From a virus (Duplodnaviria > Heunggongvirae > Uroviricota > Caudoviricetes): 64,000 bases of DNA. The DNA lies in the IMG/VR virus record IMGVR_UViG_3300010383_000113, positions 101,830-165,829 of that record. The stretch is one strand, 5' to 3'. This document shows positions 1,588 to 60,565 of this stretch, piece after piece. The position numbers and the translations under genes were made by a program. The stretch's first letter is position 1; each line of letters begins with the position of its first letter. The notes beneath the pieces were generated by a model. That model saw only the letters and a program-made list of their open reading frames with translations. It was not told the DNA's origin and did not search any database.

Positions 1588-1619
1588 ATTATAGGATATC
1601 AAGCTTCGCAACTCTGACA
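1588..1619 (-). promoter_or_regulatory. putative promoter (minus strand: TGTCAG..N20..TATCCTATAAT) in the nrdA-downstream intergenic gap
   Basis: plus-strand attata at 1588-1593 is TATAAT on the minus strand; 33-nt noncoding gap. Confidence 0.3.
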
Positions 1620-3251: not shown

Positions 3252-4225
3252 GCGAAGAGGTCCTCGGCGGTGTAGGATTGGACTTTCTTGGAGTAGGAGA
3301 CGGGCCGTTTGTGGAAGAAGTCCGTGTCCACCGTGGCGAGGATCTCGACGTTGAACCACTCCAGTTCCTTGAGGGCCTCGCGATCGACTTCGAACGCGGG
3401 ACGTCCCCCGATCATCTCCAAACTCTCGTTGAAGCGGTGCTTGATGAATTCCTTGAGCGTGGCCTTCGAGAGGCACTCCAGCTCGCCCTTCTCGAAGATC
3501 CAGTCGATGATGGCACACTCGGCGTCGTAGGCCTTCTTGCAGGCCCGCTGGAGCTTCTCGTAGAAGCCCTCGTGGAACCACTCGGGGCACTCGGCCTTGA
3601 TCTGCTTGATCAGCCACACGCCGAACAGGGCGTGGATCTGCTCCTCCTTGAGGGTGGCCTGGACGACGTTGTCCACGTCCTTGAGGAGGTTGTAGTATTT
3701 GTTGAAGCTCTTGATGACGGCGAACTGGCTGAAGAGGCTGACGTTCTCGATGAAGATGCTGAAGAGGGTCAGCGAGAGCGTGTAGTTCTCGTTCGAGTTG
3801 TCGGCCGCCCCCTTGAGATACTTCGTCAGGTAGTCGACCCTGTCCTGGATCACCGGGTTCTGGAGGAGCTGCTCGAACTCCCCGTTGAAGCCCAGGACCT
3901 CCAGGAGGTGGGAATAGGCGTCGGCGTGGCGGACCTCGCTCTCGCCGTAGCTGATGCCGACCTGTTCGATCTCGGCCTTTGGGAATCGGTCGCCGATCTT
4001 GGTCCAGAAACGCTTGACGCTGACCTCGATCTGCGAGATGGCGAGAAGGGTGTTCTTGATCGCGTTACGCTGGACGTCGTCGAGCTTGACGTGGAAGTCC
4101 TGCACGTCGCTGATGAAGTTCCACTCGCTGACGAGCCAATAGCTGTGGTTGATCGCGTTCTTGAACTCCACGGCCTCCGGATACTCGAAAGGCTTGAACG
4201 CGACCCGACGGTCGAAGATCCCCAA
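3248..4225 (-). CDS. nrdB: ribonucleoside-diphosphate reductase small subunit (class I)
   Basis: SEVRHADAYSHLL (E-x-x-H iron ligands), FIENVSLFSQFAV; C-terminal EDLF; apparent TTG start with GGGGTGGAG upstream. Confidence 0.8.
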   Translation of the reverse strand: MGIFDRRVAFKPFEYPEAVEFKNAINHSYWLVSEWNFISDVQDFHVKLDDVQRNAIKNTLLAISQIEVSVKRFWTKIGDRFPKAEIEQVGISYGESEVRHADAYSHLLEVLGFNGEFEQLLQNPVIQDRVDYLTKYLKGAADNSNENYTLSLTLFSIFIENVSLFSQFAVIKSFNKYYNLLKDVDNVVQATLKEEQIHALFGVWLIKQIKAECPEWFHEGFYEKLQRACKKAYDAECAIIDWIFEKGELECLSKATLKEFIKHRFNESLEMIGGRPAFEVDREALKELEWFNVEILATVDTDFFHKRPVSYSKKVQSYTAEDLFA

Positions 4226-4282
4226 CGCTCCACCCCGTAGACGAAAAAAGCCAGGACGGAGCCCGGCTGCTGACGAATGAAC

Positions 4283-4295
4283 CTATGAACTTATT
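4283..4295 (-). promoter_or_regulatory. putative -10 element CGTCCTACAAT upstream of nrdB
   Basis: member of the cgTCCTAyAAT family, in the 4226-4304 intergenic gap. Confidence 0.3.
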
Positions 4296-4304
4296 GTAGG
4301 ACGA

Positions 4305-4901
4305 CTAGGCGAGGAACCCGTGCCGCTTCAGGTCGCTGATGAAGTTTCGGTCGACAATCCAGCCGAGATCCGGCCTCGTCCGCCTAATAGTTACCCCGTA
4401 CTTCGCGACGATCTCGGCGAATCGAGCGTCCTCGTTCATGGCCGCGTCGGAGAAGCCGCGACGGTCCGCCATCACCCAGTCCAGGACGCCGTGCTCGGCC
4501 AGATAGAGGGCACAGTCCGAGCAGCACTGGCCCGTCACGTACGCCCTCGCCGTGCCCAGCGAACGCAGGTCCACCGTGCTGTTGTCCACGGCGTTGCGTT
4601 CCGAATGGGATATCAGCGAATAGAGCTTGGGTTTGGTCGTCGCCAGGGCGAGGTCGTCGGACCCCGGAGCGAACCCGTTGTAGCCCGTCCCGAGGACGTG
4701 GTGCGTCGCCTTGTCCACGATGACGCAGCCGTGCTTGGTCGACAGGTCGGGGCTGCGACGCGAGGCCAGGAAGGCCAGGCCCATGAAGTAATCGTCCCAA
4801 CTAGGCCGGGAGAGAGTAGCAGGGAGGGCGGGACCAAGGCGGAAGCCGAAACGCCGGCCGAGGGACGCCAGGACGGCACGGAGATTACGCAGGATCGTCA
4901 C
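4305..4901 (-). CDS. dCMP deaminase (cytidine/deoxycytidylate deaminase family)
   Basis: PSWDDYFMGLAFLASRRS, HSERNA (H-x-E zinc motif), CCSDC; a GC-motif copy lies in the N-terminal codons. Confidence 0.7.
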   Translation of the reverse strand: MTILRNLRAVLASLGRRFGFRLGPALPATLSRPSWDDYFMGLAFLASRRSPDLSTKHGCVIVDKATHHVLGTGYNGFAPGSDDLALATTKPKLYSLISHSERNAVDNSTVDLRSLGTARAYVTGQCCSDCALYLAEHGVLDWVMADRRGFSDAAMNEDARFAEIVAKYGVTIRRTRPDLGWIVDRNFISDLKRHGFLA

Positions 4902-4906
4902 GGAAG

Positions 4907-5122
4907 TTATTTCCCATAGGAGAACATTCGGCGGTATTCTTCTTCCTCGGCGGCCGTCGGCTCGTAGGGGATCTTGTCGGGGTCGAGGTGGATGATCGAG
5001 TCGACTGGCGGCTCGTCATCTGGCTGGGGCGGACATGAAGATCCGCCGTAGATCGACCCACCCATCGAAAGCCAGTCTCGTAGAGAGACGACGGAAACGA
5101 ACGGCAACGGCTCAAGCAGCAT
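4907..5122 (-). CDS. hypothetical small protein
   Basis: 71 aa ORF in gene array. Confidence 0.3.
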   Translation of the reverse strand: MLLEPLPFVSVVSLRDWLSMGGSIYGGSSCPPQPDDEPPVDSIIHLDPDKIPYEPTAAEEEEYRRMFSYGK

Positions 5123-5126
5123 GGCT

Positions 5127-5471
5127 TTACCCTTCGGACTTGAGTTCTTCGACGCATGCCATGACGTCGCCCACCGTGAGGCTCCTCCCGAGGCCCAGGA
5201 CGGCCGCGTAGACCTCCTGGACGCTCAGGCCGCTGCCGGAGTCGGCCACGGCGTGCTTGACGATCCTGCGGACCTTCCAGCGGGCCAGGAGGCCGGGGTC
5301 GCGGCACTGCTCGACGGCCGACGCCGGGTACAACTGCCAGCACTCATAGGCCAGCAGGATGAGCTTCAGGATGGCGACCACCAGGACGACGTCGACCTGC
5401 TTGGGGGAATTCGAACCGCTGTCGGACGGAATCGACGCCAGGACTTGCGAGGCCAATCTTGTGATTGTCAT
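5127..5471 (-). CDS. hypothetical protein
   Basis: 114 aa ORF. Confidence 0.35.
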   Translation of the reverse strand: MTITRLASQVLASIPSDSGSNSPKQVDVVLVVAILKLILLAYECWQLYPASAVEQCRDPGLLARWKVRRIVKHAVADSGSGLSVQEVYAAVLGLGRSLTVGDVMACVEELKSEG

Positions 5472-6388
5472 TCAATCGCCACCTTAGTGCCCGGAATACA
5501 CCAGGACACATTGTCAGGAAAGAAACCACGGCTCAAATCTTTGCGTCTCAACCTAGCCTTGATATCAGGTGCATCTCCAACATCATTGAAAAACGCCATA
5601 ATGTCATCACGCCACGGTTGATGAACATCGATTCCGTTCTCTCGCGATCTCCTGAGCATCCCGTAGTAAGCGTGCCACTCCTTGGTATTCACTTTGTTGT
5701 GATCGGGCTTCAACAACAACGGCGTCGTCAGTGCCTCCTCGTCCGTCCAGCCATTCTTATGGCGGTTCCAGAGCACCTGATACGACACGCCGATTTCTTC
5801 CGCCCATTCCGACGCCGGCAGAGTCCTCCCGTTGTATGAGATGAACCAGGTGAGTTCTCTGTTGTTGGTGTTATCTCTCGGTGTTGACCAGGAGAGATTG
5901 TTCGGCATGCGGTTGGTCCGGCACCACTCGCAATCTCCGCAAGTATAAGATCCCGTATTGTCCCTCCGATCGATCTGATGCCGAGAGTCAGGTCTCGGAC
6001 CTACGACCTCAAGGAACTTGGCGAAGTCGTTTTTAATGCCGTCGCAAACCACCACGGGGATGGGAAGCCTTCCCCCATATCGATGGTAGGCATGGTGGTT
6101 GGGATTGCCACATCGTTCAAGGATCCCGTACCAAACTCCCCACTCCGGAGATTTTTCCTTACGTGTGGCATGTCCGTGTTTGGTATTTCGTCTGATCATC
6201 CTTTCCGACGTCAGGCACCCGCACGATCGAACATTTCCACGACGTAATTCACCGCCGGCCGACACATGCCAGGATTGCTTGGGGCAGGTACATCGACACA
6301 GCCAAACTCGATCGCCGTTCGACGCCCTGCCCCATTCTCTGACAACTTTCAGGCGGCCAAATTCGCGGCCGACCATCTCAATCATCAA
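5468..6388 (-). CDS. HNH homing endonuclease (HNH_3 type) with N-terminal DNA-binding domain
   Basis: HQIDRRDNTGSYTCGDCEWCRTNRMPNNLSWSTPRDNTNN (H-x-D..N..NL..N..N), NTKHGH..W..RC.NPN..Y..YGG; markedly lower GC than flanks. Confidence 0.65.
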   Translation of the reverse strand: MMIEMVGREFGRLKVVREWGRASNGDRVWLCRCTCPKQSWHVSAGGELRRGNVRSCGCLTSERMIRRNTKHGHATRKEKSPEWGVWYGILERCGNPNHHAYHRYGGRLPIPVVVCDGIKNDFAKFLEVVGPRPDSRHQIDRRDNTGSYTCGDCEWCRTNRMPNNLSWSTPRDNTNNRELTWFISYNGRTLPASEWAEEIGVSYQVLWNRHKNGWTDEEALTTPLLLKPDHNKVNTKEWHAYYGMLRRSRENGIDVHQPWRDDIMAFFNDVGDAPDIKARLRRKDLSRGFFPDNVSWCIPGTKVAIE

Positions 6389-6394
6389 GTTGCC

Positions 6395-7369
6395 TCACCA
6401 AAGATCGAAATGCGATCTGTCCAACTTCTGAGCCGGAAACCCATCAAACATACTGTAGACGAAGCTATCGCCCTGCTTGAGCATGGCGTCGATCGTCTCG
6501 GGACGTACCCGCAAGGTGCCCTTCGGCCAGAGGATCGTAGGATCGCGTAGGTCACGCAATTGTCCGTGAACGTCTCCCCAACTATTGAAGACGCACGCAT
6601 GCGGAGGAATGCCGTCGCCTCCGGTGTCGACGCCCAGGATGGCCATCTGATGGTTCCAGGTGCCCTGTGCCCTCATGAAGCCGGAAGAATCGGCGTTCAT
6701 TTGAAATCCGTAGTTGGATGCTACGGAAACGCCGTATCCATTCTTCACGGCGTCACAGCAGGCGTCCCATCCTGGAACAAGCGAAGAACTCTTGACAAGA
6801 TGCTTCTTACCCTCGGTGATGAAATTTGCCGGCGGACCACTGCCTCGGCCCCAGGACCTAGCCAAGGATCCGCTGTAAGGGGGCACGCCCTCACCATCGG
6901 CGGCCAAGGCTCCATACTGCAAGACGCCTCGACTCCCCCAGACGCCGAGCGACCCGTCCGTCAGTCCCAGACGAGTTCCTCCGATCTGGACGCGAGAAAT
7001 GCCGTAGAAGTATGGGGGAAAGGTGTCATGCCATTCGTAAAACTCGCCATTGAGGATCGGCAAGCACTGAGTCGCATTGATGGCGTTACGAATACCCCAA
7101 CTTACGCAGTCACCTATAGCTTGTGCAATGTTCGGCCAGTCTTTGCCACCACTGATCTTTCTGTAGAGTTCCCAGAGCATGACACGGGCGGGCTTCTCAC
7201 CCTGATCGCCCACGATACGGAACGTCGGAAACTCGTCACCCCAGAGATCGAAGGCCTGACGCAGCAGGTCCGGACGCTCCTGGCCGACGTATCCGCACAA
7301 CTCCTGGACCGGGAACGACCCGTGCTCATTGACGATGACGTCGGACATGGAAACGGCTCCCCTGTGCAT
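6395..7369 (-). CDS. papain-like (C1-type) cysteine peptidase-like protein
   Basis: Q..GDCVSWG (Cys), HQMAILGVD (His), NSWG (Asn) in papain order. Confidence 0.5.
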   Translation of the reverse strand: MHRGAVSMSDVIVNEHGSFPVQELCGYVGQERPDLLRQAFDLWGDEFPTFRIVGDQGEKPARVMLWELYRKISGGKDWPNIAQAIGDCVSWGIRNAINATQCLPILNGEFYEWHDTFPPYFYGISRVQIGGTRLGLTDGSLGVWGSRGVLQYGALAADGEGVPPYSGSLARSWGRGSGPPANFITEGKKHLVKSSSLVPGWDACCDAVKNGYGVSVASNYGFQMNADSSGFMRAQGTWNHQMAILGVDTGGDGIPPHACVFNSWGDVHGQLRDLRDPTILWPKGTLRVRPETIDAMLKQGDSFVYSMFDGFPAQKLDRSHFDLW

Positions 7370-7417
7370 AAAGGCGTGATTAGACCATCACACATAAATA
7401 CGCCGGGGAGCCGATCT

Positions 7418-8377
7418 TCACTTCTTGGGGATCGCGGCGAATCCCTTCGCGGCCTCGTCGGCGGCGGCCTTGAAATCCTCGGCCGTCCGACAGGTGCCGT
7501 TCTGGTAAAGGGTATAGAGATACCCGCTCATCGTCGACTTGAGGGTCTCGATCTTGGAGGTCGGCACCCCGCTGGAGGCCAGGTTGTCGTTCGCGAGGGT
7601 CTTGGCCGTCTGCAAGATCGTGTTCACGTCCCGCATCTGCGAGAGGGCCGCGATCTGAGACGAGACGGTCTCGTAGGTGACCTTCAACGCCTGCGAGACC
7701 TTGTATTTCTCCTCGCCGGTCAGGCCCTCATAGGTTTTCATGTAGTCGTAGAGCATCTTGGAGATGCCGTACTTGCCCGGATCGAAGGTCGGCTCGGGAT
7801 CCGGCTTGGGGGTCGGAGGGTCCGGATTCGGCGGCGTCGGCGGGGGCGGATTCGGGACGTCCGGCTCGGGCTTCGCCCCGCCCCCCACCTTGATCGTCTT
7901 GACGGAGATCTCGGGGCTGTCGATCTCGGGGTTGACGAGGGCCGACTTCCCTTCGACGGTCTGCTGGGTGCCGAAAAGGCAGTCGACGTCGAGGAAGACG
8001 TTGTAGGTGGCCGGCTTCATCCCGGCCGCGAAGAACAGCTTGGAGCCGTCCGGCCAGACGATGACGTTGTCCTTGGGCTTGCCGTCCTGGACCACGGTCC
8101 ACTGGAACTTGACCTGGACGAGGCCCTCGGGGAACTTCGTCCGGTCGAGGTTGGCCGACACGACGATCATCTCGCCGGGGTCAACCTCCTCCTGGCTGAC
8201 GATGTCGACGGTGGGCAGCACGTAGGTGGAGCCGCGAAGTTCGACGGCGTCGATGCCCTGGGCCTTGAGGATCCGGGCGGCCTCGGCCTTGGAGCCCTTG
8301 ACCTCCAGGATGGTCTTGGGGGCGTCCTGGAAGCCGACGACGCCGAGGCAGAGGACGAGGCTGAAGATCGAGTTCAT
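7418..8377 (-). CDS. secreted protein with proline-rich linker
   Basis: N-terminal signal peptide MNSIFSLVLCLGVVGF; PNPPPPTPPNPDPPTPKPDPEP linker. Confidence 0.5.
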   Translation of the reverse strand: MNSIFSLVLCLGVVGFQDAPKTILEVKGSKAEAARILKAQGIDAVELRGSTYVLPTVDIVSQEEVDPGEMIVVSANLDRTKFPEGLVQVKFQWTVVQDGKPKDNVIVWPDGSKLFFAAGMKPATYNVFLDVDCLFGTQQTVEGKSALVNPEIDSPEISVKTIKVGGGAKPEPDVPNPPPPTPPNPDPPTPKPDPEPTFDPGKYGISKMLYDYMKTYEGLTGEEKYKVSQALKVTYETVSSQIAALSQMRDVNTILQTAKTLANDNLASSGVPTSKIETLKSTMSGYLYTLYQNGTCRTAEDFKAAADEAAKGFAAIPKK

Positions 8378-21802: not shown

Positions 21803-22639
21803 TCATCCGGCCTCCCTGCTCCTCTGCCCTCCCCCTTTGGTCATGAGATGGTGACGGGCCAGGTCGAGGATCGTGATCGCCGCCGACTCCGGGAGGTCGG
21901 GGTGGACGATCTTCACCTCGACCGAGGCCTTGTACGCGGGCGTCTCGACGGGGATGATGAACTTGGAGACCTTGCCCTTCAGGAGGGTGGACTCCTTGGG
22001 GTTCTCGGCCCTGGCGACGCTGTAGGCTTTCGTCAGGCTGATCTTGCCCTCGATGAGCTGCTGCCTGGTCGTCTCGTTCAGCTTCAATATACTCAGCATC
22101 TTCGAGACGTGTCCGGCGGAAATCCCGATTTTCTTGGCGACCTGATCCTGGCTCATGCCGAGCTTGTCCATCATGGCCTTGTAGGCCTCGGCCTGCTCGA
22201 CCGGATTGAGGTCTTCGCGGGTGCAGTTCTCGATGAGCTGGTCGACCAGCAGGTTCCCGTCGTCCAGCTTGCTCGTCTCGATCAGGGCCTCGATCGCCGT
22301 CACGCCCGCCATCCGGCAGGCCTGCCAGCGACGCTCCCCGGCGATGATGACGTAGTGTTCGAGCAGGTCGTCCCACCGGACGCGGATCGCCTGGAGGAGC
22401 CCCCGGTCGCGGATCGTGTCGGCCAGGCGTTCGAGTTCGACCTGGTCGAATTGCTTGCGGGGCTGGTTCGGGTCCGGCTTGATCCGGTCGATCGGGATCA
22501 GGCCCGAGTTCTTGAGCTTCTTGACGCCCTGATGCTGGGCGGACCTGGCGGGGGCCGGCGTGGCGGCTTCGGCCGACGCGGCCTCTTCGAGCCCGGCCCC
22601 CATCGACTCGGCCATATGGTCTTCGTTGAACCTGCTCAT
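21803..22639 (-). CDS. parB: ParB partition protein
   Basis: IIAGERRWQA (ParB GERR box), HTH region; start MSRFNEDHMAESMG near 22639. Confidence 0.75.
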   Translation of the reverse strand: MSRFNEDHMAESMGAGLEEAASAEAATPAPARSAQHQGVKKLKNSGLIPIDRIKPDPNQPRKQFDQVELERLADTIRDRGLLQAIRVRWDDLLEHYVIIAGERRWQACRMAGVTAIEALIETSKLDDGNLLVDQLIENCTREDLNPVEQAEAYKAMMDKLGMSQDQVAKKIGISAGHVSKMLSILKLNETTRQQLIEGKISLTKAYSVARAENPKESTLLKGKVSKFIIPVETPAYKASVEVKIVHPDLPESAAITILDLARHHLMTKGGGQRSREAG

Positions 22640-23439
22640 GCCGCGATCTCCCCGTTTCCGTTCGTGAGGATGCGAAGCTCGATCTCGTTGGCGAGGTCCC
22701 CCACCGCCTCGTGGGCCGCCGACTTCTTCTTGAAGTGGCAGATGGGGGTCCGGCCGACCACGGCCTCCTTGAAGGCCGAGGCGTTGGGGATCGTGGTCAG
22801 CATCACCCGCTGCTTGTACGTGTTCCGGAGGAGTTGGTGGAACTTCTGGTGGACGGCCAGTTGGCGGTTGTATTGCGAGATGAGGTAGCCCAGGAGGGTG
22901 GGAGGGCCGCCCCGGATCTTCTGGGCCTTGGCGATGGCCTGGTTGACCTCGAAGATGCCCTGAGTGCCCAGGTCCTCGGGCTGGAGCGGCACCAGGACCC
23001 AGTCGCTCGCGATCAGGGCCGCGTGGGTCGTGAAGTCGAGCGACGGCCTCGTGTCGATGAGGACGTAGTCGTAGTCGTCGCGGACGTCGTCGAGGAAGTC
23101 CTTCAGCGACTCTTCGCCCTCGTGCCACTCCTCCTCGGCGGTCCGGTCACGCTTGATGACGTCGCGATGGCCGGGCAGCAGGTGGAGGTTGTCGAAGCCG
23201 GTCGGGTGGATCACGGACTCGTCGACGATCTCGTCCGAGTAGACCTGGTCGATCGACCGTTCGCGGGGCAGGGCGTGGAGGCCCTTCGGCCCCCAGAACA
23301 ACTGGGTGAGGCTCGACTGGGAGTCGTTGTCCACGACGAGGACTTTCCGGCCTCGTTGGGCCAGGACGCCCCCCAGGTGGAAGCAGGTGGACGTCTTGCC
23401 GACGCCCCCCTTGAGGTTCGTGACCGCGATGATGGGCAT
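22636..23439 (-). CDS. parA: ParA partition ATPase
   Basis: deviant Walker A KGGVGKTS, VDNDSQ; ATGA-coupled to parB. Confidence 0.8.
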   Translation of the reverse strand: MPIIAVTNLKGGVGKTSTCFHLGGVLAQRGRKVLVVDNDSQSSLTQLFWGPKGLHALPRERSIDQVYSDEIVDESVIHPTGFDNLHLLPGHRDVIKRDRTAEEEWHEGEESLKDFLDDVRDDYDYVLIDTRPSLDFTTHAALIASDWVLVPLQPEDLGTQGIFEVNQAIAKAQKIRGGPPTLLGYLISQYNRQLAVHQKFHQLLRNTYKQRVMLTTIPNASAFKEAVVGRTPICHFKKKSAAHEAVGDLANEIELRILTNGNGEIAA

Positions 23440-45778: not shown

Positions 45779-46506
45779 TCAGGTGACGTTTGTGCGGCGT
45801 TTGTTCTCTACGATGAGTTTGATCGCCGCCGGGGAAACGCCGTATACTCGGGCGATTTCGGCCTTCCGACGGCCGTCCTGATAGAGTTTGCGAATTCCAC
45901 GTACGTCATCGTCCGAGAGTTTCTTCCTCGGTTGACCCTGAGCTTTAGGATTGGGCGTAGGACTGTAGTGAATGCCCGTGAGGCTGCTCCAGGATCTTCC
46001 TTTGATGATCGCGTTGATGGTGGTCGGGTCAACGCCAAAGAGAGCGGCGATTTGCTCCTGCGAAAGGCCCTCGTCTTTGTAGAGCCTGATGATTTCCAGG
46101 ACTTTATCAGGGTCGAGTTTTGCGTGGGGGTGGTGACCACCGGGTTGGAGGTAGTTGGTGCCGTGCTCGACCTGATCCTGGTAGTTCTCGGCCGGGCTAC
46201 CGTATTTGAGGTTGTCCAGTCTGTTGTTGGATGGATCCCCGTCGAGGTGCCGGATGAGCATCCCATCCGGTCTAGGCCCAACGTAAGTCAGGAGTACGAG
46301 TTCGTGGACGAAGAAGAAGTTCTTCCTCCCGAGTTCCACCCCGCGATGCCCCCTGTACTGGACGCTCTGCTTAAGCTGCTTCCAAGGCCCGGTGACGATA
46401 TGGTCTTTTCGTTTGTAGTGAAGGTTTGACCAAACGGTGCCGTCGTTGCCAACTCGGTAGTTGCTATAGCCGGGAACAAGGCGATACTCAACTCGAAATT
46501 CCACCG
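45779..46506 (-). CDS. HNH homing endonuclease (NUMOD4 + HNH_3 + C-terminal HTH repeats)
   Basis: YRVGNDGTVWS, HLDGDPSNNRLDNLKYGSPAEN; GTG start with AAGGAG; lower GC than flanks. Confidence 0.65.
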
Positions 46507-46680
46507 GCAGACGTCTCCTTGATGTTGAAGTGCATGGCCTGGGTGATGATCGGACCTTCGCAGTAGACCGAAAGGTCGATGGCGACCTTGACGGCGGCCT
46601 TGGGGTCGTGGCCGAGGTGCATGGCGGCCGTGGCGAAGTCGCAGCCGGCCCCGATGGCGTCGTACGCCAGGATCTCGTCA
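46507..46680 (-). pseudogene. C-terminal fragment of an HslV/proteasome-beta-like (Ntn hydrolase) gene
   Basis: NHCDGYYVDEILAYDAIGAGCDFATAAMHLGHDPKAAVKVAIDLSVYCEGPII aligns with the HslV C-terminus; N-terminal 100+ residues absent, in-frame stop upstream. Confidence 0.3.
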
Positions 46681-46795
46681 ACGTAGTAGCCGTCGCAGTG
46701 GTTTCAAAAGCTTCTTCGAAGCTTAACGGATGGGATCGGTAGGGAGTTTGAGGTGATACTCAAGTGATGGAACAACTCGGCCGGGAGGTCGACCT

Positions 46796-52861: not shown

Positions 52862-53076
52862 GGACGCTCCTTCTCGATTTCGGCGTCGATGTAGCGACGC
52901 ACCGCGTCGTAGTCTCGGAGCTGGAGCACATGAGCACCGGCCTCGGGATGGGCGGCCAGCCAGTTGATTCGTGTGTGGTGTTGGTTAGTGCCGCCAATCA
53001 TCAGAAGCATCACGATCAGGGACGCCACCACGCAGATCAAGATTCCGGCCAGCGAGAGAAGGTCTAGGTCTTTCAT
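52858..53076 (-). CDS. small membrane protein (paralog of 51923..52140)
   Basis: start MKDLDLLSLAGILICVV. Confidence 0.4.
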   Translation of the reverse strand: MKDLDLLSLAGILICVVASLIVMLLMIGGTNQHHTRINWLAAHPEAGAHVLQLRDYDAVRRYIDAEIEKERP

Positions 53077-53111
53077 GGGGTCTCCTAGGTGAGAATGTGG
53101 GAGCAGTGAGG

Positions 53112-53568
53112 TCATCCCTTGTCGTCCTGGTTGAAATACTCATAGGACAGGTGTTCGGCCCGGGGGACGCGGATGGCGTTCACGCGGTCGCACATAGGGC
53201 TGTTCGCGAGCATTGTGCATCGGAAGTCGAGAGAGTCCGGCTTCGCGTTATGTACGAACGGGTGACAGCACAATGAACAGCTCGCGGGAACCATGATCTC
53301 GCTCCAGGCAATGTCGTCCGGGTCGATGAGGTCGCCGTCTTGATACTTGGGAGGTCCGATCCCATCTTCGACGAAGGGGATGATAACGCTCCATGACATC
53401 GGGGCGGCCCCATAGACCTTGTCGGGATTCTGGGTGTGGAGCGACTCGGCCGCCGCACGAGCCTCCTTCCAGGTCATGTGGCGAGACACCACGTCCAGAC
53501 AGTCCGCTCGCTGGACCAGGACGAAGTATCGAGGCTTGTTGTAGAGATCATCAACATCAACCATCACG
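53112..53568 (-). CDS. hypothetical protein with Cys-rich C-terminus
   Basis: probable start MVDVDDLYNK; SCSLCCHPF. Confidence 0.4.
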
Positions 53569-53585
53569 TAGTCTCCCACAAAGAA

Positions 53586-53634
53586 GAGGAGCAGGGAGGG
53601 CACGTCTCCACCCCCTGCTCCCCGACGAAGTCGG
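53586..53634. repeat. near-perfect inverted motif pair GGAGCAGGGAGGG-8nt-CCACCCCCTGCTCC plus hairpin CCGACgaaGTCGG
   Basis: direct reading; 12-13 bp potential stem. Confidence 0.65.
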
Positions 53635-53826
53635 TCAGCTTTTGACGCCCCTGTGAAGATCACGGCACTTCTCTGAGCAGTAGTGCAGCCATCTTCCCTT
53701 TCGGCTCCGCTCGTAGATCAGGGTTCCTTCATCGACCATCTTACGTCGAGCCGTGCAACCATCTACGAGTTCGTTGAATATCTCCCTGGAACATCGATCG
53801 CAGATGGCCTTCCATCCTTTGGTCAT
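53635..53826 (-). CDS. zinc-ribbon mini-protein
   Basis: CDRC...CSEKC. Confidence 0.35.
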   Translation of the reverse strand: MTKGWKAICDRCSREIFNELVDGCTARRKMVDEGTLIYERSRKGRWLHYCSEKCRDLHRGVKS

Positions 53827-54293
53827 TCATCCGCCCTCATCAGATTGATGCTGCGGTCGTTGTTGATCATGATCCGGAAGATGTCGCCGACTTGCGGGAG
53901 GTGGTCGAAGAAGACCCTGTCGGCGTGTTCTCGCAGGATCATGGTCCGGCCGTCCTTCAGGCCGCGAACTTCTACGACGACATCATAGGACCGGGCCTCG
54001 TGCTGCTTGTAATTGCCGTACTTGTAGACGTCGGTTTCGCCCAGGGCTCGAACAACTTCGACCAGGCCGTCGTTGCTCTTGGCATAGCCCTGAAGATTTG
54101 TCAGGACGGCCTGTTTCTTCAGGTGGTCGTTAACGGCCATGTAGCCGAACACAGTCAGAATCAGGAACAACGGGAGGAGTAAACCTCCCATCATCGTCCA
54201 GAAAAAGATCTGGGCGTCTTTGTCGGCGTCGGAGACGCCTCCCTTGGTGGTTCTGGTCGCATTCGAGATCGCCACCATCGCTGGTAGGTTCAA
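53823..54293 (-). CDS. membrane protein
   Basis: TM MMGGLLLPLFLILTVFGYM. Confidence 0.4.
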   Translation of the reverse strand: MNLPAMVAISNATRTTKGGVSDADKDAQIFFWTMMGGLLLPLFLILTVFGYMAVNDHLKKQAVLTNLQGYAKSNDGLVEVVRALGETDVYKYGNYKQHEARSYDVVVEVRGLKDGRTMILREHADRVFFDHLPQVGDIFRIMINNDRSINLMRADE

Positions 54294-56080
54294 GACTGGG
54301 CCCTCCTGCGGATCTCGGCGAAGGTCTCGTCGATCAGCAGGCGGCCATCGCGAAAGACTTCACGCATCTGGTCGTCCGGCTCGTTGATCGAGGCACAACG
54401 ATCCACCAGGCGGTAGTCGCCGTTCTCGTCGAGGACCACCTTAGTATATCCACGAGCTGATTTCTTGGTGCCGGAATCGGTCGCGGGATCCTTGAAGATC
54501 TCGCGGAACTCGCCGTTGACGATGCCGGCCGTGGACTTCACAGCGAAGCCGAAGGTGTCCCGAGTGACCATCTGATAGGTGTTGTGGGATAGGTAGCCGT
54601 TCGTGATGAACGTGCCACACGAGGTCTGAATGCCTGCGATCGGTTGTTTCCCGACGGGGTTGATCGAGGTGATCGTCGCCAGTTGGTAGGTCCTCCCTCT
54701 GGCCAGAGCGGGCATCTCTGCGGTAATCGCGTCGATCTTCTCCAGTAGTCGTTCGGGTCGTACCTGGCCGAGGAAGCGGAGTGTTTCTACCCATCCCCCC
54801 GTAAGGATGACGTGTTCGCACTTACGGTCAAGACGGTAGTACGTGAATTCTCGATCGTCGAGTCGGGCTTTGATTCGTTCCAGTGTGGGCGTTTGGTTTT
54901 GGGAGATGCTTACCTTCCATGACGGAATTCGATCCCCGGTGTTGCAGACACCAAGTCCTCCTTCGCCGTCGAACATGCCCGCAAGCCACCCGCCTTCGCG
55001 GGTATTGTCTGTTTCCCAGGGGTCGCATAGGTAGGCGATCTGATCGCCCACTTCGAGTTCGTAGGTTCGTTTCCAAACCAGGCCGGGATTTCGAGGGAAG
55101 TCCTTCGATGATTGGGCTTTGTTTGGGTCGAAGAAGACGTTGTTCTTACGGCGGCTTGGTGCGTAGACCAGCCAGGGATGGTCGTCGCTGGCGGTGATGT
55201 CTGGTCCGATATCGGTTGAGATCTGGGTCGAGAGTTTCGTGCCTGGATTGTTGTACTCGATGGTAGCCTTGCGGAATCGACGAGTGGCATGACGACCATT
55301 GTCGAAATTCGGATCCTCGTCGAACGCGATGATTTCCTGCCCGACTTTCAAATCACCGGCACGTCGCCAGATCAAATCGGCACACAAAATGAGAGTTTCG
55401 GGATGGACGCAATAGGAACCGACCCCAAACGTGATGTTCGAGGATGCGAACCCCTTTGCTTTCAGGCCCTCCAGGATGGCCTTGGCACGCTCCAGGGTGA
55501 TCGAGTCCCCATAAATCGTCCCGATGTGGCTGTCGAGGACTTTGTAGCCCTTGGAGTTGATGGTCCCGCCGAACGTCTGCCATAGCACGTCCAGGGTTCC
55601 CATCTCGGCGGGCTCGGGAATGGCGACATTCCAGTCAGAGATCCAAACCCGGGTCGCGACGCCCTGCTGGGCCTCGTACGAGCAGGTAAGGTCCCAGTAG
55701 ACGACCAGACCATCCTTGTCCACGCGAATGCGGTCGACGTACTTATGAGGCCGTCCGCCGACATGCAAGACCTCCTCGTTGATCTTGAACTTGGCTACAT
55801 CGCCGTGTTCCTGTATCGCTTGCTCGATCGACGAGTAGGTCCGGACTGGCTTTCCGCAGATCACTTCGACTGGACTGCCAGAATCTGGTCTCACTACAGT
55901 CTTCCCGTCGCGGGACATGATGACTTTCTTGAGACGTGGAAGGCTGTCTGATAGCACAGACCAGTAGTCGAATGAGTCAGACACCAGCGATACGATCCCC
56001 TTGGGATAAACGTTGGTGATCATGTGCTTGATGAAGGCGGTTTCAGACAGCAGTCGGTAGTTCGTCTCGAAACTCGTCAT
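54290..56080 (-). CDS. nicotinamide phosphoribosyltransferase-family protein, C-terminal half, interrupted by an intein
   Basis: LVSDSFDYW and RPDSGSP (NAMPT motifs) then GVGSY|CVHPETL...TASDDHPW...LAGMFDGEGGLG...ITNGYLSHN|T (intein blocks A, B, LAGLIDADG, terminal HN). Confidence 0.7.
   Translation of the reverse strand: MTSFETNYRLLSETAFIKHMITNVYPKGIVSLVSDSFDYWSVLSDSLPRLKKVIMSRDGKTVVRPDSGSPVEVICGKPVRTYSSIEQAIQEHGDVAKFKINEEVLHVGGRPHKYVDRIRVDKDGLVVYWDLTCSYEAQQGVATRVWISDWNVAIPEPAEMGTLDVLWQTFGGTINSKGYKVLDSHIGTIYGDSITLERAKAILEGLKAKGFASSNITFGVGSYCVHPETLILCADLIWRRAGDLKVGQEIIAFDEDPNFDNGRHATRRFRKATIEYNNPGTKLSTQISTDIGPDITASDDHPWLVYAPSRRKNNVFFDPNKAQSSKDFPRNPGLVWKRTYELEVGDQIAYLCDPWETDNTREGGWLAGMFDGEGGLGVCNTGDRIPSWKVSISQNQTPTLERIKARLDDREFTYYRLDRKCEHVILTGGWVETLRFLGQVRPERLLEKIDAITAEMPALARGRTYQLATITSINPVGKQPIAGIQTSCGTFITNGYLSHNTYQMVTRDTFGFAVKSTAGIVNGEFREIFKDPATDSGTKKSARGYTKVVLDENGDYRLVDRCASINEPDDQMREVFRDGRLLIDETFAEIRRRAQS
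54580..55410 (-). mobile_element. intein (about 277 aa) with LAGLIDADG homing-endonuclease-like domain inside the NAMPT C-half
   Basis: N-terminal Cys, TxxH block B, LAGMFDGEGG, C-terminal SHN followed by Thr; lower GC; coordinates approximate. Confidence 0.6.
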
Positions 56081-56663
56081 AGTACATCCAGATTAGTGGC
56101 TCGTTGGTTTCCGGGTGTTTGCCCGCAGATCTACATCCGTAGAGCTTACGACAAACCCGAGTCAAGTTGCCGCTGTCGATTCCGTATTTCTGAGCGGCTA
56201 ATCTAGCAGATTCAAAAACATCGCCTGTGTTCAATAGGACAACAGGCGTTGACTTGGGATTTTCCTTGCCTGTGCGTTTGCCCTTGTGGGCCTTGGATAG
56301 CTTCTCGCTGCGTTCCACGGTCGATTTCAGGAGATTGTTGTCCCATGCGTGTTGAATGTTCTCAGCGTGGGTCATCCACTCCAGGTTGCCGTGGTGGTTG
56401 TCGAGTTTGTTTCCGGACTTGTGGTTCACCTCCGGCTTATCGTCCGGATTTGGAACGAACAGGATCGCTACTAGCCGATGAATCCGAAGCGTTTTGCGTC
56501 GACCGTCGTCGCCTCGAAGAGTGATGACCGGATAGCCGTCCTCGTTGATTTGAACGGGAAGGTGCGATTCAGACTTTGTGTCGCACACTTCGCCGGAGTC
56601 GGATATCCGGTAGCGGCCGAACCCCTCATAGGTCTTCCAGGTTGATTCCGTTCCACGATCCAT
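56043..56663 (-). CDS. HNH homing endonuclease (NUMOD4 + HNH_3) inserted between NAMPT halves
   Basis: YEGFGRYRISDSGEVCD, EVNHKSGNKLDNHHGNLEWMTHAEN; about 50% GC; overlaps both NAMPT half-ORFs by about 37 nt. Confidence 0.7.
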   Translation of the reverse strand: MDRGTESTWKTYEGFGRYRISDSGEVCDTKSESHLPVQINEDGYPVITLRGDDGRRKTLRIHRLVAILFVPNPDDKPEVNHKSGNKLDNHHGNLEWMTHAENIQHAWDNNLLKSTVERSEKLSKAHKGKRTGKENPKSTPVVLLNTGDVFESARLAAQKYGIDSGNLTRVCRKLYGCRSAGKHPETNEPLIWMYYDEFRDELPTAV

Positions 56664-57456
56664 TGACGCGAAGGCTCTCCTCGATGTTGAAGATGTTGAG
56701 CGTGGCGACGCTGTGTTCCGTGGCTGGAACGCTTACGCCCACCACCTCCTGCTCCACATCCGCGTTGTAGTAGCTCTCGACCAGGTCGATGGCACAGATC
56801 GAGTCCGTCCCGATGAACGAAGTCAGGTGCCCCGCTCCGCTCATCGCCCCGTCTTCGAGCCCACTCAAACCACGCATCGAAAAATCGTGTGCCTGAGTGT
56901 TCAGATGGGCGTCCGAGTCGCAGGTCTCATCCGCGTACTTCTTGAGGAGCAGGCGGTAGTGCCTCGCCACCGTCGCGGAAGTCGTGGGCTTCCAGAGGTA
57001 GGCCGAGAGGGCCGTCTCCAGGAAGTTGGTCAGCCACGCGAAGTCCTCGTGGGTGTTGTAAAGAACCAGCACAGGGGTCTTCATCGGCACCTGACAGCCT
57101 TCGGGCAAGGCCTTGATGCAGATGGGCAGGTAGCCGAGGTCGTGGAGTTGTTCGATGTGGTCGGTCGGGACCGCGTCCTTGCCGAGGTAGGCGTCCATAC
57201 GACGCTTGAACCGCAGGACGACCTCTCGCTTGGGCCGCTGGAAGAAGCCGACGTCCCAGGTTTCCTGCAAGAACTCCTTCAGGAAGTATTGGAGGCCGAA
57301 GAACGTGACCTTCCCCGTCCACAGATCGTCGGGGATGTTCTTGAGGCGATCACTTCTAGGGGTCAGGTTGCTGTACACCATCGAGGTGCCGGCCGGGTAC
57401 TGCTGGCGGTGGCTCTGCTTGTAGCCGTCAGCACACGTCAGGGGGTTCTTAAGCAC
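56626..57456 (-). CDS. nicotinamide phosphoribosyltransferase-family protein, N-terminal half
   Basis: ADGYKQSHRQQYPAGTSMVYS, DFSMRGLSG, GAGHLTSFIGTDSI, VSVPATEHSVAT match the NAMPT N-terminal region; homology stops where the HNH insert begins. Confidence 0.7.
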   Translation of the reverse strand: MLKNPLTCADGYKQSHRQQYPAGTSMVYSNLTPRSDRLKNIPDDLWTGKVTFFGLQYFLKEFLQETWDVGFFQRPKREVVLRFKRRMDAYLGKDAVPTDHIEQLHDLGYLPICIKALPEGCQVPMKTPVLVLYNTHEDFAWLTNFLETALSAYLWKPTTSATVARHYRLLLKKYADETCDSDAHLNTQAHDFSMRGLSGLEDGAMSGAGHLTSFIGTDSICAIDLVESYYNADVEQEVVGVSVPATEHSVATLNIFNIEESLRVNGSWNGINLEDL

Positions 57457-57718
57457 TGTCTTTCCTCCGGGCGTATCGCCCGTCCAATTCTTCAGTTTCG
57501 AACATTTCCATCCGGCCGTTCGGGAAGCGGATGTAGTAGGCGGCTCTCGGGGTCACTAGACAGCGAATGATGTCCTCGACGATCCCTTCCTGCCCAAGCA
57601 AGTCACGGATTGCGTGGACGTTCTCGGTGAGATTCTTGCGTACCCTGACGGCCTGGCCCACCTCGAAGATGGGCTCTGGCCGAGGTGCCTGTGCGGCGAG
57701 TTCGATCATGTGTTTCAC
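57449..57718 (-). CDS. hypothetical protein
   Basis: 89 aa ORF. Confidence 0.4.
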   Translation of the reverse strand: MKHMIELAAQAPRPEPIFEVGQAVRVRKNLTENVHAIRDLLGQEGIVEDIIRCLVTPRAAYYIRFPNGRMEMFETEELDGRYARRKDSA

Positions 57719-58116
57719 GAGAGAGTGACCCCTGACTCTTCGATCCGTTCAACGAAGTAGTCAAGAGTCCGGCCGATCGCTTCGACGACATAGGTGGTGT
57801 TGACGGGCTTGTCCATGGTGCCGGATGAGGAACTCGCACAGAGGGATGAGATCTGACTCTCAACCCTGAAATGAGCGGTGACCCAATTGACTTCCTCGTG
57901 GCACGAGAGGGTCAAACTGATGGGGTCTTTCCCCTTCTGCCAAAATCGGGCCTTGGCGTAAAGCTTCCGGTTGTCGTTCCACCAACTGAAGAAACCATGG
58001 CAGGTCTTCACGACGACGGTGCGGTTTTCATAGCCGTGGTTTTCCAAAATGTCGGCGATATCAGAGATTTTGGCGGAAGTCGCCTCGACGACCTCATCCC
58101 AAGCGATGGTTTCCAT
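57715..58116 (-). CDS. hypothetical protein
   Basis: 133 aa ORF. Confidence 0.4.
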   Translation of the reverse strand: METIAWDEVVEATSAKISDIADILENHGYENRTVVVKTCHGFFSWWNDNRKLYAKARFWQKGKDPISLTLSCHEEVNWVTAHFRVESQISSLCASSSSGTMDKPVNTTYVVEAIGRTLDYFVERIEESGVTLS

Positions 58117-58125
58117 GAGAACCTC

Positions 58126-58368
58126 TCAAAATTCGTGACAGATACAGGGACAGTCGTAGTCCAGACCCAGGCACTCACAGCACTCCTCGTCCTCGAAGTC
58201 AAACGACGGAGGGCCTGCTTCCTGCTGTTCGAGCTTTCGTTCGAGTTCGTCGAGTCGCCGGGTGGCGTTGTGCCACTCGTTCTCAACCCTGGCGAACTGA
58301 CTGATGGCCCAGAACGCCCAGGACCCGTGTAAGATAGTTAGGACGACGACGGTGATCAGGATGCTCAT
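58126..58368 (-). CDS. membrane protein with Cys-rich tail
   Basis: start MSILITVVVLTIL; CCECLGLDYDCPCICHEF. Confidence 0.35.
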   Translation of the reverse strand: MSILITVVVLTILHGSWAFWAISQFARVENEWHNATRRLDELERKLEQQEAGPPSFDFEDEECCECLGLDYDCPCICHEF

Positions 58369-59286
58369 GAGAAGCTCCGAAGGTTGCCGTAGGAATCGAA
58401 GTCGAGGGGCATCACGCCGAAAGGTTGATTGGGCCAGAGCCACAGCATGTCGTCGGCTCGCAGGACGGATTCCGACTTAAAGCTGTCGGTCGTGTAGATT
58501 CCGTCGATATCTTGGTAGAGAACGTCCACACCCTTGGAGAAGATCCCGTGGGTGACGTACAGGAGGACCTTGGAGGCCCCCGCCTTCTTCAAGACCTTGG
58601 CCAGTTCGAGGAAGGTGCGTCCGCCGTCGCAGATGTCGTCGACGATGAGGCAGGCCCTCCCTGCTACCTTGTGACCCTCGGGCAGCTCGGTCGAAAGGAT
58701 GTCGCCCGTCTTCGTGCATCGCACCTTGGTGGCCGTCACCACGTCCAGGCCGTAGGCCGAGGCGGTCTTCCAGGCCTTCTTGTAGGCCCCGGCGTCCGGG
58801 CTGACGATAACCGTCTGGGAATCCTTGAGGACGCCCTGGAGGCCGCTGTGGGCCCTCACAAGGGCATCCTGCTCGATCACCCGGCAGTTGTTCAGGAGGG
58901 CCGGCGTGACGTCCGAGTGAGGGTCGCAGATGATGATGTTGTCGTGCCAGGGATGGTCGTCGATGAGGCGGGCGATCGACTTCAGGGAGAAGGCCTCGCC
59001 GTGTGCCATCCGACGGTCCTGGCGGGCGTACGGGAAGTAGGGCACGACGAGGTTGCAGATCCCACCAAAACTGCATTGCTCGTTCAACAGATCGAGGAGG
59101 AGCAGGAGGTGAATGACATCGTCGCTCGACTGGAGCCTCGCCGTGATGGTTACGTCGCCGGAGAAGTGCTGTGGGACCAGGGAGGCCTTGGCCTGAATCT
59201 CTCCTCCAGAGAACTGGAAGGAATTGGTGTTGAGGATCTCGCGTTCCCAGGGTTTCGGCCAGTGGGAGATTTCGATCTGATTCATG
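58365..59286 (-). CDS. ribose-phosphate pyrophosphokinase homolog (Prs-like; possibly ADPR-pyrophosphate synthetase)
   Basis: start MNQIEISHW; VVPYFPYARQDR and LIVDDICDGGRT (PRPP-binding loop). Confidence 0.7.
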
Positions 59287-59344
59287 GGGCCTTCAGTTGG
59301 TGTCGTGATAGAGGACTTCCAGGACCGTCTTGTGGCAGCAGCGA

Positions 59345-59722
59345 TCAAGATTTGCCATTTACTCGTTCGACCACATAGAAATACAGGTAAGACGACGCTA
59401 TCAAGGCCACGGTGATTGGTCCAAAGGCGGAACCGACGGCGACGGTCCCACTGAGTTTGAGACGCTCTCTCCAGCAGAGGTCTTTGATTGGGAAGCCGAG
59501 ACGAAGGTCGATCTTGTAGTGGCGGTCCAGGTAGAAGAGAAGGCTTTCCGTCATCATCACGCAGGCGATGAGCGAACAGACGGCCCAGAAGACGAAGAAG
59601 TTCACTTGACGGTTCCTCTGACCTTGATGGAGTTCGAGAGGCGACGCATGATACCATTCCAGCCGTTCACGGCCCCTGCCCTCGTGTACCACTTGGGGCC
59701 ACCGCTGCCGCACCGCCGACAA
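59345..59722 (-). CDS. membrane protein
   Basis: hydrophobic segments VNFFVFWAVCSLIACVMM, ITVALIASSYLYFYVV. Confidence 0.35.
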   Translation of the reverse strand: MSAVRQRWPQVVHEGRGRERLEWYHASPLELHQGQRNRQVNFFVFWAVCSLIACVMMTESLLFYLDRHYKIDLRLGFPIKDLCWRERLKLSGTVAVGSAFGPITVALIASSYLYFYVVERVNGKS

Positions 59723-59835
59723 ACGACCTGGTAGGTGCGACTGCCGAGGTCGAGGAGGTCGGGAGCAGGGAGGGCGGCCAGGTCGAGCATCTCGCAGACG
59801 CGACAGCCCTCTAGTCTGTAACGGGTTCTCGGCAT
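59602..59835 (-). CDS. zinc-ribbon mini-protein
   Basis: CRVC...CRRCG. Confidence 0.3.
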   Translation of the reverse strand: MPRTRYRLEGCRVCEMLDLAALPAPDLLDLGSRTYQVVCRRCGSGGPKWYTRAGAVNGWNGIMRRLSNSIKVRGTVK

Positions 59836-59874
59836 CGTCTCGTCGCCTCTCGGGTTAGGGTGCGACGAAGTATA

Positions 59875-60111
59875 TCACGAACGCCGCAGTTTCCTTCGTC
59901 GGCAGTTCGAACACCCTTCGCAGGGGCCGAGTTCGCCGCTACCACCGCACCTCTTGCAGGTGATGACGACTCGAAGTTCGCCGCCGAGGTAGATCGAGCC
60001 GCCGCCACCGCACTTCTCGCAGATCTTACGGCCGAACCAGTTACAGCCGAAAATGATCGAGCCGAGACCTGACTTCTTCGGGAAGCTGGAAATCCAAGAG
60101 GTAGATTTCTT
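59875..60111 (-). CDS. DnaJ-type zinc-finger (CxxCxGxG) mini-protein, second copy
   Basis: CEKCGGGGSI, CKRCGGSGEL, CEGCSNC. Confidence 0.4.
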   Translation of the reverse strand, partial: KKSTSWISSFPKKSGLGSIIFGCNWFGRKICEKCGGGGSIYLGGELRVVITCKRCGGSGELGPCEGCSNCRRRKLRRS

Positions 60112-60565
60112 CATCCCAGGTGTCGTCGGTGTTCCTGTCGCGGTAATGGAAGCCTCCAAAGCATTCGCCGATGTAGAGGGAGGCGTGGCGGCCGTCCCTG
60201 TTCCAGTAGTAGATGATGTCGCCCTCTCCATCGGGCATGGCGTCGGGTAGTTCTAACTTGCCCTTGTAGTCGAGGGACAGTCGCCCCCAGATTTCGATCG
60301 CCAGCATCGCGACGCTGTGGCTGATGTTCTTCTCGTCGACCTGGGAGAAGAGATAGGTGATGTGCCTCCGCTTGTCGTTGTCGATGACCCACTGGAAGGA
60401 CTGAAGTCGTTCGATGGCTTGCCGAGTCTCTTGGAGTAGGATCTCCACTCGCGTGAACGCCTCCTTCTCGCCTTCACAATACCTATTGTAACCGCGATGG
60501 ACGATGAGATCGGCCATTTCTTGAAGGTTTTGCCGGCAGTCATTAAGCTCAAGAATCTTTCTCAT
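60041..60565 (-). CDS. hypothetical protein
   Basis: 174 aa ORF; overlaps the previous gene by about 70 nt. Confidence 0.4.
   Translation of the reverse strand: MRKILELNDCRQNLQEMADLIVHRGYNRYCEGEKEAFTRVEILLQETRQAIERLQSFQWVIDNDKRRHITYLFSQVDEKNISHSVAMLAIEIWGRLSLDYKGKLELPDAMPDGEGDIIYYWNRDGRHASLYIGECFGGFHYRDRNTDDTWDEEIYLLDFQLPEEVRSRLDHFRL

Follow-up and report, generated by a model that had tools for sequence, protein, structure and literature searches.

A probable NAD+ reconstitution operon with an endonuclease-split, intein-bearing transferase gene in a large phage or phage-like element

Here we describe, from a large phage or phage-like element, a locus that is probably an operon for NAD+ reconstitution pathway 1 (NARP1). 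It encodes an ADP-ribose pyrophosphokinase homologue (Adps) with the fold of Prs, the ribose-phosphate pyrophosphokinase, and a Namat-type transferase of the NAMPT family whose gene is interrupted twice, by a homing endonuclease gene that splits it and by an intein. The locus (54290..59286) lies in a 64-kb stretch of viral DNA, hereafter the window, which is part of a 171,667-bp JGI contig (P0001 and P0121 from this contig are identical to window proteins); the scans cover the window, the remaining ~108 kb lying outside them. Almost all genes around the locus are on the minus strand, as are all features for which coordinates are given below. The original prediction, made from the DNA sequence alone, had noticed a split NAMPT-family gene some 900 bp from a Prs homologue and had read the pair as a NARP1 candidate. 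Both points hold, i.e. the NAMPT-family gene is present in two open reading frames (ORFs) separated from the kinase gene by 908 bp, and the NARP1 assignment is supported by a phylogenetic tree, by the clamp of the transferase, by the Adps motifs of the kinase and by the lack of an NMN (nicotinamide mononucleotide) adenylyltransferase (NMNAT) gene in the window. With 908 bp between the end of adps and the start of the N-terminal namat fragment on the same strand, and three small ORFs inside this interval, the pair lies within the proximity used to define NARP1 by Osterman et al. (10.1101/2024.02.11.579819). The HNH gene between the namat fragments and the intein in the C-terminal fragment are features beyond those originally noted. 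Judged by their alignments, the homologies of the genes of the locus are strong matches and not chance.

The first gene, adps (58365..59285), codes for a protein of 306 aa that starts with MNQIEIS, and GAAGG is located 8 nt 5' of its ATG codon. The Prs homologue had initially been placed at 58365..59286; the homologue stands, but its start has to be moved to the ATG at 59285, and the two motifs that had been singled out, YFPYARQDR and DDICDGGRT, are both present in the product. The assignment is based on PHROG families, on Pfam and on an alignment with Adps from Vibrio phage ICP1, the match to phage family PHROG 619 being strong (E=8e-81) and those to Pribosyltran_N, Pribosyltran and Pribosyl_synth all being weak (E=1e-8 to 1e-10). 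The protein shares 38% identity with ICP1 Adps, 33% with Adps from Bacillus phage SPbetaL1, 44% with the product of the partner gene in an Erwinia phage and 26% with E. coli Prs. R88, H123, D164, K187, D216, D217, I218, C219, D220 and F225 correspond to R87, H121, D161, K185, D212-D216 and F221 of ICP1 Adps, for which structures and kinetics have been published and in which K185 is essential (PMC13586617). The hairpin lysine and the PP-loop (K185 and D212-S220 in ICP1 Adps) are thus kept as K187 and as D216, D217, I218, C219, D220, G221, T224 and F225, respectively. Moreover, DPHSDVTPAL, a K-x-R hairpin (K187/R189) and VDDICDGGRTF are near-invariant across 119 relatives and common to ICP1 Adps, whereas E. 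coli Prs has DLHAEQIQGF and VDDMIDTGGTL at the positions of these motifs. Among the NCBIfam models only the broad subfamily model TIGR01251 is passed (132 vs 113 bits); with the Prs equivalog models the protein reaches 58-123 bits, the cut-offs being 296-536, and the validated SPbetaL1 Adps likewise remains below them.

An AlphaFold2 (AF2) model of the kinase, calculated with 66 sequences, has a mean predicted local distance difference test score (pLDDT) of 92.8 and adopts the fold of the PRPP (phosphoribosyl pyrophosphate) synthetases (PRPS). In a Foldseek search it matched E. coli and human PRPS with a TM-score of 0.70 at 20-25% identity, PRPS entries being the only structural matches in a searched PDB set that contained no solved Adps structure. 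Loss of the C-terminal helical module α11-α12 of PRPS has been proposed as a signature of Adps (PMC13586617). The length of the C-terminal tail alone turned out to be uninformative in this respect, with 37 aa here as compared to 40 aa in E. coli Prs and a family median of 22 aa, and therefore the structure model was used instead. In the model, the last strand (residues 289-292) is followed by 14 residues that contain no helix. The comparison of the kinase with Adps and Prs that had been suggested as a check thus comes out on the Adps side, as the residues and motifs of ICP1 Adps are kept, the scores are below the Prs equivalog cut-offs and the terminal helices are missing. These alignments and the model support the view that the product of 58365..59285 is a divergent Prs-fold protein of the Adps family and not a housekeeping Prs.

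The second gene, namat, is distributed over an N fragment (56626..57456, 276 aa) and a C fragment (54290..56080, 596 aa as precursor and 319 aa without its intein). The N fragment starts with GTG, preceded by a GGAGGA ribosome-binding site, matches PHROG 448 (E=1e-98), PHROG 16547, NAMPT_N and the start of NAPRTase, and has 50% identity to residues 10-251 of SPbetaL1 Namat. The C fragment matches PHROG 15800 (E=1e-87) and, once spliced, aligns to residues 255-487 of SPbetaL1 Namat and to residues 277-566 of the Erwinia phage homologue. The joined protein was compared with PDB sequences and reached 490 bits with SPbetaL1 Namat (9w5x/9w5w, published in PMC12774641), 223 bits with Xanthomonas Nampt and ~218 bits with human NAMPT. 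Its global identity is 50% to SPbetaL1 Namat, 46% to ICP1 Namat (NrsB), 55% to a chromosomal homologue from Acinetobacter and 35% to NadV from Vibrio phage KVP40. The second-best structural relative (427 bits) is a 495-aa protein deposited as 'nicotinamide phosphoribosyltransferase' (PDB 9ke8/9keo), which has an atypical clamp, GAQTYQRNTRD; no source phage of 9ke8 was found in the phage collection, and no paper was found either.

In a neighbour-joining tree (12 sequences, among them four additional KVP40-type phage homologues, 462 columns, 200 bootstraps) the transferases that are linked to Adps and those that are linked to an NMNAT separate with 100% bootstrap support. The window protein is located inside the Adps-linked clade, which contains the biochemically validated Namat proteins from SPbetaL1 and ICP1, and its nearest group comprises the homologues from Acinetobacter and from two contigs, L010 and L011. 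The NMNAT-linked clade contains KVP40 NadV, and two of the added KVP40-type homologues (Ralstonia RSP15 and Caulobacter CcrPW) have a NadM-type NMNAT gene directly upstream.

The residues around the active site point in the same direction. Of the catalytic and NMN-site residues in the Namat structure (roles as given in PMC12774641), all 15 are kept. The N fragment contributes D10, Y12, R37 of the SCL loop, F192, R195, D218 and the catalytic H248, and the C fragment R340, D342, G467-D468 and the SCH clamp (numbering of the joined protein). The SCL loop is long as in other Namats, unlike that of KVP40-type proteins, and Arg37 is found at the position of the stacking Arg40 of SPbetaL1 Namat, where Arg, Lys or Tyr is expected. 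The SCH clamp, the topic of Lan et al., was defined as GS-X-φ-X-φ-X-φ-TRD with an aromatic residue at position 3. After removal of the intein the motif reads GSYTYQMVTRD, i.e. Tyr residues occupy positions 3 and 5, and the clamp residues R40, F392 (Tyr here), Y394 and T398-R399-D400 of Namat are kept. The consensus is GS[FY]TY[QN]Y.TRD in the validated or Adps-linked sequences, as opposed to GGGLLQ..[DT]RD in the KVP40 type. The C fragment additionally contains an insertion of ~80 aa (residues 78-156; window ~55613..55849), modelled with a pLDDT of 38-67, which is not found in the SPbetaL1, ICP1 and KVP40 proteins and is partly common to the Erwinia phage and metagenomic homologues. Thus, with its placement in the Adps-linked clade, its Namat-type clamp and its full set of core residues, the transferase answers both checks that had been proposed for it, and the alignments support a Namat-type enzyme, not an NMNAT-linked Nampt.

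These results also bear on the alternative that had been named from the outset, namely conventional salvage as in NARP2 of KVP40, in which the Prs homologue would produce PRPP, the NAMPT homologue would form NMN, and an NMNAT from the host or from elsewhere in the genome would complete NAD+. Both folds are compatible with PRPP/NMN chemistry, Namat enzymes keep some activity with PRPP in vitro (PMC12774641), the kinase exceeds the TIGR01251 cut-off, and two thirds of the source contig are out of view. On the other hand, the tree does not place the transferase in the NMNAT-linked Nampt clade, its clamp is of the Namat type and not GGGLLQ, and the kinase, with its Adps-family motifs, stays far below every Prs equivalog cut-off. 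As the original prediction had stated, no NMNAT gene is visible nearby: a Pfam scan of the ~80 ORFs of at least 99 aa in the window revealed no NMNAT, Nudix, NadR or PnuC domain, and tblastn with NatV from KVP40 gave nothing below E=4. Furthermore, no phage has been found that has both pathway types (Osterman et al., 10.1101/2024.02.11.579819). We therefore consider salvage via PRPP very improbable.

If the locus is a NARP1 operon, homology suggests that Adps would, in a first step, transfer the β,γ-pyrophosphate of ATP onto the 1'' hydroxyl of ADP-ribose (ADPR), yielding ADPR-PP and AMP. The substrate, ADPR, is the product left behind by the NADases of Thoeris, DSR, SIR2-HerA and similar systems. 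In a second step, Namat would join nicotinamide and ADPR-PP directly to NAD+ and PPi, and as NAD+ would be obtained directly, no NMN adenylyltransferase would be needed. For Namat to be active, protein splicing of the C fragment would have to rebuild the clamp (GSY-TYQMVTRD) and the N and C fragments would have to assemble non-covalently.

The two namat fragments are separated by a gene of the HNH_3/NUMOD4 type (56043..56663; Pfam HNH_3 and NUMOD4, PHROG 59 with E=1e-41), which overlaps the end of the N fragment and the start of the C fragment by 38 nt each in other frames. The homologue in Erwinia phage pEp_SNUABM_01 is intact (573 aa), and the N fragment aligns to its residues 1-276, remaining homologous to intact relatives up to its stop codon (...INLEDL*, stop after Leu276). 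The C fragment begins at an ATG of its own with a new head of ten residues, MTSFETNYRL, after which homology resumes at LSETAF.... No residues are missing, and therefore the break is clean, falling between Erwinia residues 276 and 277. It coincides with an insertion of ~25 aa after EHSVATxN that is present in the Erwinia homologue and in the metagenomic proteins P0141 and P0143 (849-850 aa). In an AF2 model of the fused and spliced Namat (pLDDT 89), helices 248-265 and 278-290 flank the junction, which is part of a loop modelled with lower confidence. The gene is split inside a surface insertion that is specific to the clade, and in the model this site is the loop that joins the two helices.

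Phage endonucleases with HNH and NUMOD domains are often encoded in introns, and the interruption is inside a coding sequence, so that one might think of a self-splicing group I intron that contains the HNH gene and whose removal would give one continuous namat mRNA and a single polypeptide. In a permissive Rfam search of 53500..60000, however, no group I intron model matched, even with E values up to 1 allowed. The interval is taken up by the HNH ORF, whose overlaps on both sides leave no space for a ribozyme core, and homology between the tail of the N fragment and intact relatives extends to the very stop codon. An intron is thus barely conceivable. The missing intron match, together with an HNH ORF that fills the interval and overlaps both fragments, points instead to the insertion of a free-standing homing endonuclease gene that created a two-subunit gene.

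The second interruption of namat is an insert of 277 aa in the C fragment (54581..55411), which, by its sequence, is an intein with intact splicing residues. It starts with Cys1 (CVHPE...), contains a block-B-like SDDH and a LAGLIDADG-like WLAGMFDGEGG motif, and ends with SHN, followed by Thr+1. It interrupts the adenine-clamp helix after GSY and before TYQMVTRD. Excision joins GVGSY to TYQMVTRDTFGFAVK and restores the alignment, which becomes ungapped with the sequence of the SPbetaL1 Namat crystal structure 9w5x. An intein-containing NCBIfam model matches residues 222-506 of the C fragment (E=5e-9), the similarity of the intein C-terminus to the Mxe GyrA intein is weak (E=0.03), and the Pfam Hint and LAGLIDADG models gave no match to the intein. 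Since it interrupts the adenine clamp, the intein should keep the precursor inactive until it is spliced out. Inteins at the same site (274-289 aa, GS[YF]/C...[ST]HN/TY[QN]) are found in 27 of the best 120 clusters, i.e. in P0121, which is identical to the C fragment precursor, and in 26 other metagenomic clusters, the carriers listed among P0122-P0152 mostly being unsplit genes of 750-875 aa. Related inteins occur in unrelated host proteins (P0208 and the portal-like protein P0235). In the literature searched we found no description of an intein in the Namat gene family.

Several points weigh against a working NARP1 operon and have to be considered. We know of no NAMPT-family enzyme for which fragment complementation has been shown, and no clear Shine-Dalgarno sequence precedes the C fragment. 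In the kinase, F92 and F223 of ICP1 Adps are replaced by M93 and E227, two positions that vary among other Adps proteins, and the sequence contrast was made with a single canonical Prs, that of E. coli. An NMNAT gene could lie in the ~108 kb of the source contig outside the NMNAT scan. Finally, position 7 of the clamp (Tyr396 in SPbetaL1 Namat) is Met503 in the joined sequence and thus not aromatic; among 112 close relatives Tyr is found at this position 89 times, His eight times, Met five times and Cys four times, and single clamp mutations lowered the activity of Namat only 1.3-1.7-fold (PMC12774641). Taken together, the main remaining doubt concerns the activity of the spliced and reassembled Namat rather than the kind of pathway, an activity that is presumed for a protein that is in pieces and has Met instead of Tyr in its clamp.

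The altered clamp residue and the weak ribosome-binding context of the C fragment would also suit a decaying module, i.e. a remnant that no longer rebuilds NAD+ after the HNH insertion has inactivated namat, and so would the physical split of the gene, with its stop after Leu276, given that the closest full-length relatives (P0141, P0143, P0145 and P0150) are unsplit. What speaks against decay is that neither fragment has frameshifts or internal stops, both being complete ORFs whose third-position GC is normal (0.83 for the N and 0.71 for the C fragment), that every catalytic residue is kept and the splicing residues of the intein are intact, and that the break falls precisely on a loop of a lineage-specific insertion, the C fragment having its own ATG. 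Furthermore, N halves and C halves form separate families (PHROG 16547 and PHROG 15800, respectively), and therefore split NAMPT versions persist in cultured phages. We thus regard decay of the module as unlikely. That two selfish elements persist in one gene suggests that this gene is under selection. Returning to the NARP1 operon, it is quite conceivable, though not something we would count on, that Namat functions as a three-piece protein, i.e. depends on splicing and on non-covalent association of its N and C parts, that a Macro-domain protein encoded elsewhere extends the pathway in trans and that the small ORFs of the operon code for accessory factors. If so, this would be the first split, intein-bearing enzyme of the NAMPT family and a case of NAD+ reconstitution that depends on protein splicing.

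The Macro-domain gene, which had also been pointed out in the original prediction and is confirmed by PF01661 (23.8 bits) and PHROG 335 ('phosphatase', E=2e-37), is located at 229..714, ~54 kb from the operon, and codes for a protein of 161 aa, a candidate ADPR-1''-phosphate phosphatase similar to Adpp and Poa1p. It shares 27% identity over its full length (E=8e-14) with Adpp from Vibrio phage Gary, a validated ADPR-1''-phosphatase whose sequence was taken from the supplement of 10.64898/2026.01.28.702374. Among PDB entries it matches yeast Poa1p (6lfu, E=8e-7) and a DarG-type Macro domain (5m31, E=6e-8), and its best NCBIfam match, below the cut-off, is the macrodomain of the DarG antitoxin. 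Based on the homology to Gary Adpp and the DarG match, the protein could counter aRES-type or DarT-type defence. As a possible extension of the pathway it may supply ADPR from ADPR-1''-phosphate, and it is plausible from its sequence that it acts in trans as an Adpp. In two related contigs, L012 and L013, the distance between Namat and a Macro homologue is 0.8-3 kb. Phages carry this Macro family widely and irrespective of NARP1 (2544 records), and in this genome we found no evidence that ties the Macro gene functionally to the operon.

Between adps and the N fragment of namat there are three small ORFs, ORF80 (58126..58368), ORF133 (57715..58116) and ORF89 (57449..57718), none of which has a Pfam or PHROG match. 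ORF80 is a small predicted membrane protein with one transmembrane helix and a Cys-rich tail, and its start is coupled to the stop of adps via an ATGA overlap (junction TCATGAGC). ORF133 is an ORFan for which a search of 5.8 billion proteins returned no homologue beyond its own sequence, and the overlaps of ORF89 with ORF133 and with the N fragment amount to 4 and 8 nt, respectively. The three ORFs show no similarity to neighbour genes of NARP1 in related loci and could be accessory factors or filler. Neither a σ70-like promoter nor a consensus minus-strand terminator was found in 53000..60500; from their tight packing on one strand with overlapping stops and starts, the genes from adps to namat are probably co-transcribed.

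Adps and Namat genes are adjacent or within two small ORFs of each other in L010, L011, L013, the Erwinia phage, ICP1 and SPbetaL1. L010 and L011 encode the kinase's closest relatives (50-52% identity), and in both contigs a NAMPT-family gene for a protein of 493-495 aa follows directly downstream. These two contigs also contain genes for an MmeI-type restriction-modification system, an IS605 transposase, a coupling protein of a type IV secretion system and a giant helicase, and therefore the pair also occurs in bacterial contexts resembling mobile elements or defence islands. Among named relatives, the one closest to the N fragment comes from an Acinetobacter record (CAKLQF020000015.1; 58% identity in tblastn, 55% over the whole protein), which is labelled 'Acinetobacter phage MD-2021a' and looks bacterial-chromosomal, with ABC transporter, AraC and similar genes. 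We considered a classical NadV-NadM salvage operon for this record and rejected it, since its NadV has the Namat clamp and its third gene, annotated as NMNAT/ADP-ribose pyrophosphatase, codes for a 255-aa NrtR-like protein with Nudix and winged-helix domains and not for an NMNAT.

The window also encodes ribonucleotide reductase (RNR), ThyX, dCMP deaminase, dUTPase, a σ factor, several HNH proteins and ParA-, ParB- and RPA-like proteins. The large (1599..~3240) and small (3248..4225) RNR subunits and dCMP deaminase (4305..4901) belong to a nucleotide-metabolism cluster at 1599..8377. One RNR family in PHROG matches two separate ORFs, and the gene for the large subunit may thus also be in pieces. 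The ORFs 5468..6388 and 6395..7369, which have lower third-position GC, may be the source of the HNH-endonuclease PHROG matches from the pooled scan. A second HNH_3 endonuclease, fused to several helix-turn-helix (HTH) domains, is encoded at 45779..46681, i.e. this genome contains multiple genes of the homing-endonuclease type. ParB (21803..23128), with its N-terminal and HTH domains, is encoded near a ParA/MinD-like ATPase and a Replication-initiator-protein-A-like (RPA-like) domain; the presence of these genes beside phage nucleotide-metabolism genes indicates that the element may be a phage-plasmid and not strictly a lytic phage. None of the genes in the window was recognised as structural, and a megablast search of 50,697 phage records returned no near-identical phage genome. 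Overall, the gene content of the window suggests a large phage or a phage-plasmid.

NARP1 is a published, structurally characterised and common system, present in ~4% of sequenced phages (10.1101/2024.02.11.579819). Our analysis adds an operon of a large, GC-rich phage or phage-plasmid that has not been cultured and leaves the understanding of NARP1 unchanged, the only noteworthy extras being the recurrent intein at the clamp site and the endonuclease-split gene. A Namat that naturally exists as a gene in pieces could show where the NAMPT fold tolerates fission.

A gene that is split by a free-standing homing endonuclease gene is known from Aeromonas phage Aeh1, where mobE interrupts nrdA. As in Aeh1, the endonuclease ORF here adds a stop and a start, and the two resulting ORFs cover the whole protein; unlike in Aeh1, the interrupted gene is namat, which additionally bears an intein, and the split product is presumed to function. 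The prs-nadV pair of Acinetobacter resembles the present locus in its clamp, which is of the Namat type (GSFTYNYLTRD), and in its Adps-type partner, which has DDICDGG, but it is part of a chromosome, has neither a split nor an intein and precedes the Nudix/winged-helix gene, and the role of prsA_2-nadV may be housekeeping recycling and not counter-defence. NARP2, in which Nampt/NadV cooperates with an NMNAT as in KVP40, has in common with the present system the NAMPT fold, the nicotinamide-binding core and the purpose of restoring NAD+; it differs in its transferase, which shares 35% identity, has the clamp GGGLLQQLDRD and belongs to the other clade, whereas here the partner has a Prs fold and the window contains no NMNAT. 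With NARP1-AP of phage Gary (Adps-Adpp-Namat; 10.64898/2026.01.28.702374) the element shares a full-length Adpp homologue, whose gene, unlike in Gary, is ~54 kb away and thus outside the within-two-genes distance of that study. Compared with NARP1 of SPbetaL1, E. coli phage Bas63 and ICP1 (NrsA/NrsB), the operon differs by the three small ORFs between its genes, by its HNH-split and intein-bearing Namat and by Met in place of Tyr396, and the Namat insertions of ~25 and ~80 aa are common only to homologues of the Vequintavirinae type and some metagenomic ones. It nevertheless has the same two families in the same order and on the same strand, with identities of 33-38% for Adps and 46-50% for Namat, and it shares with these systems the catalytic residues, the PP-loop, the hairpin lysine and the frame of the clamp.

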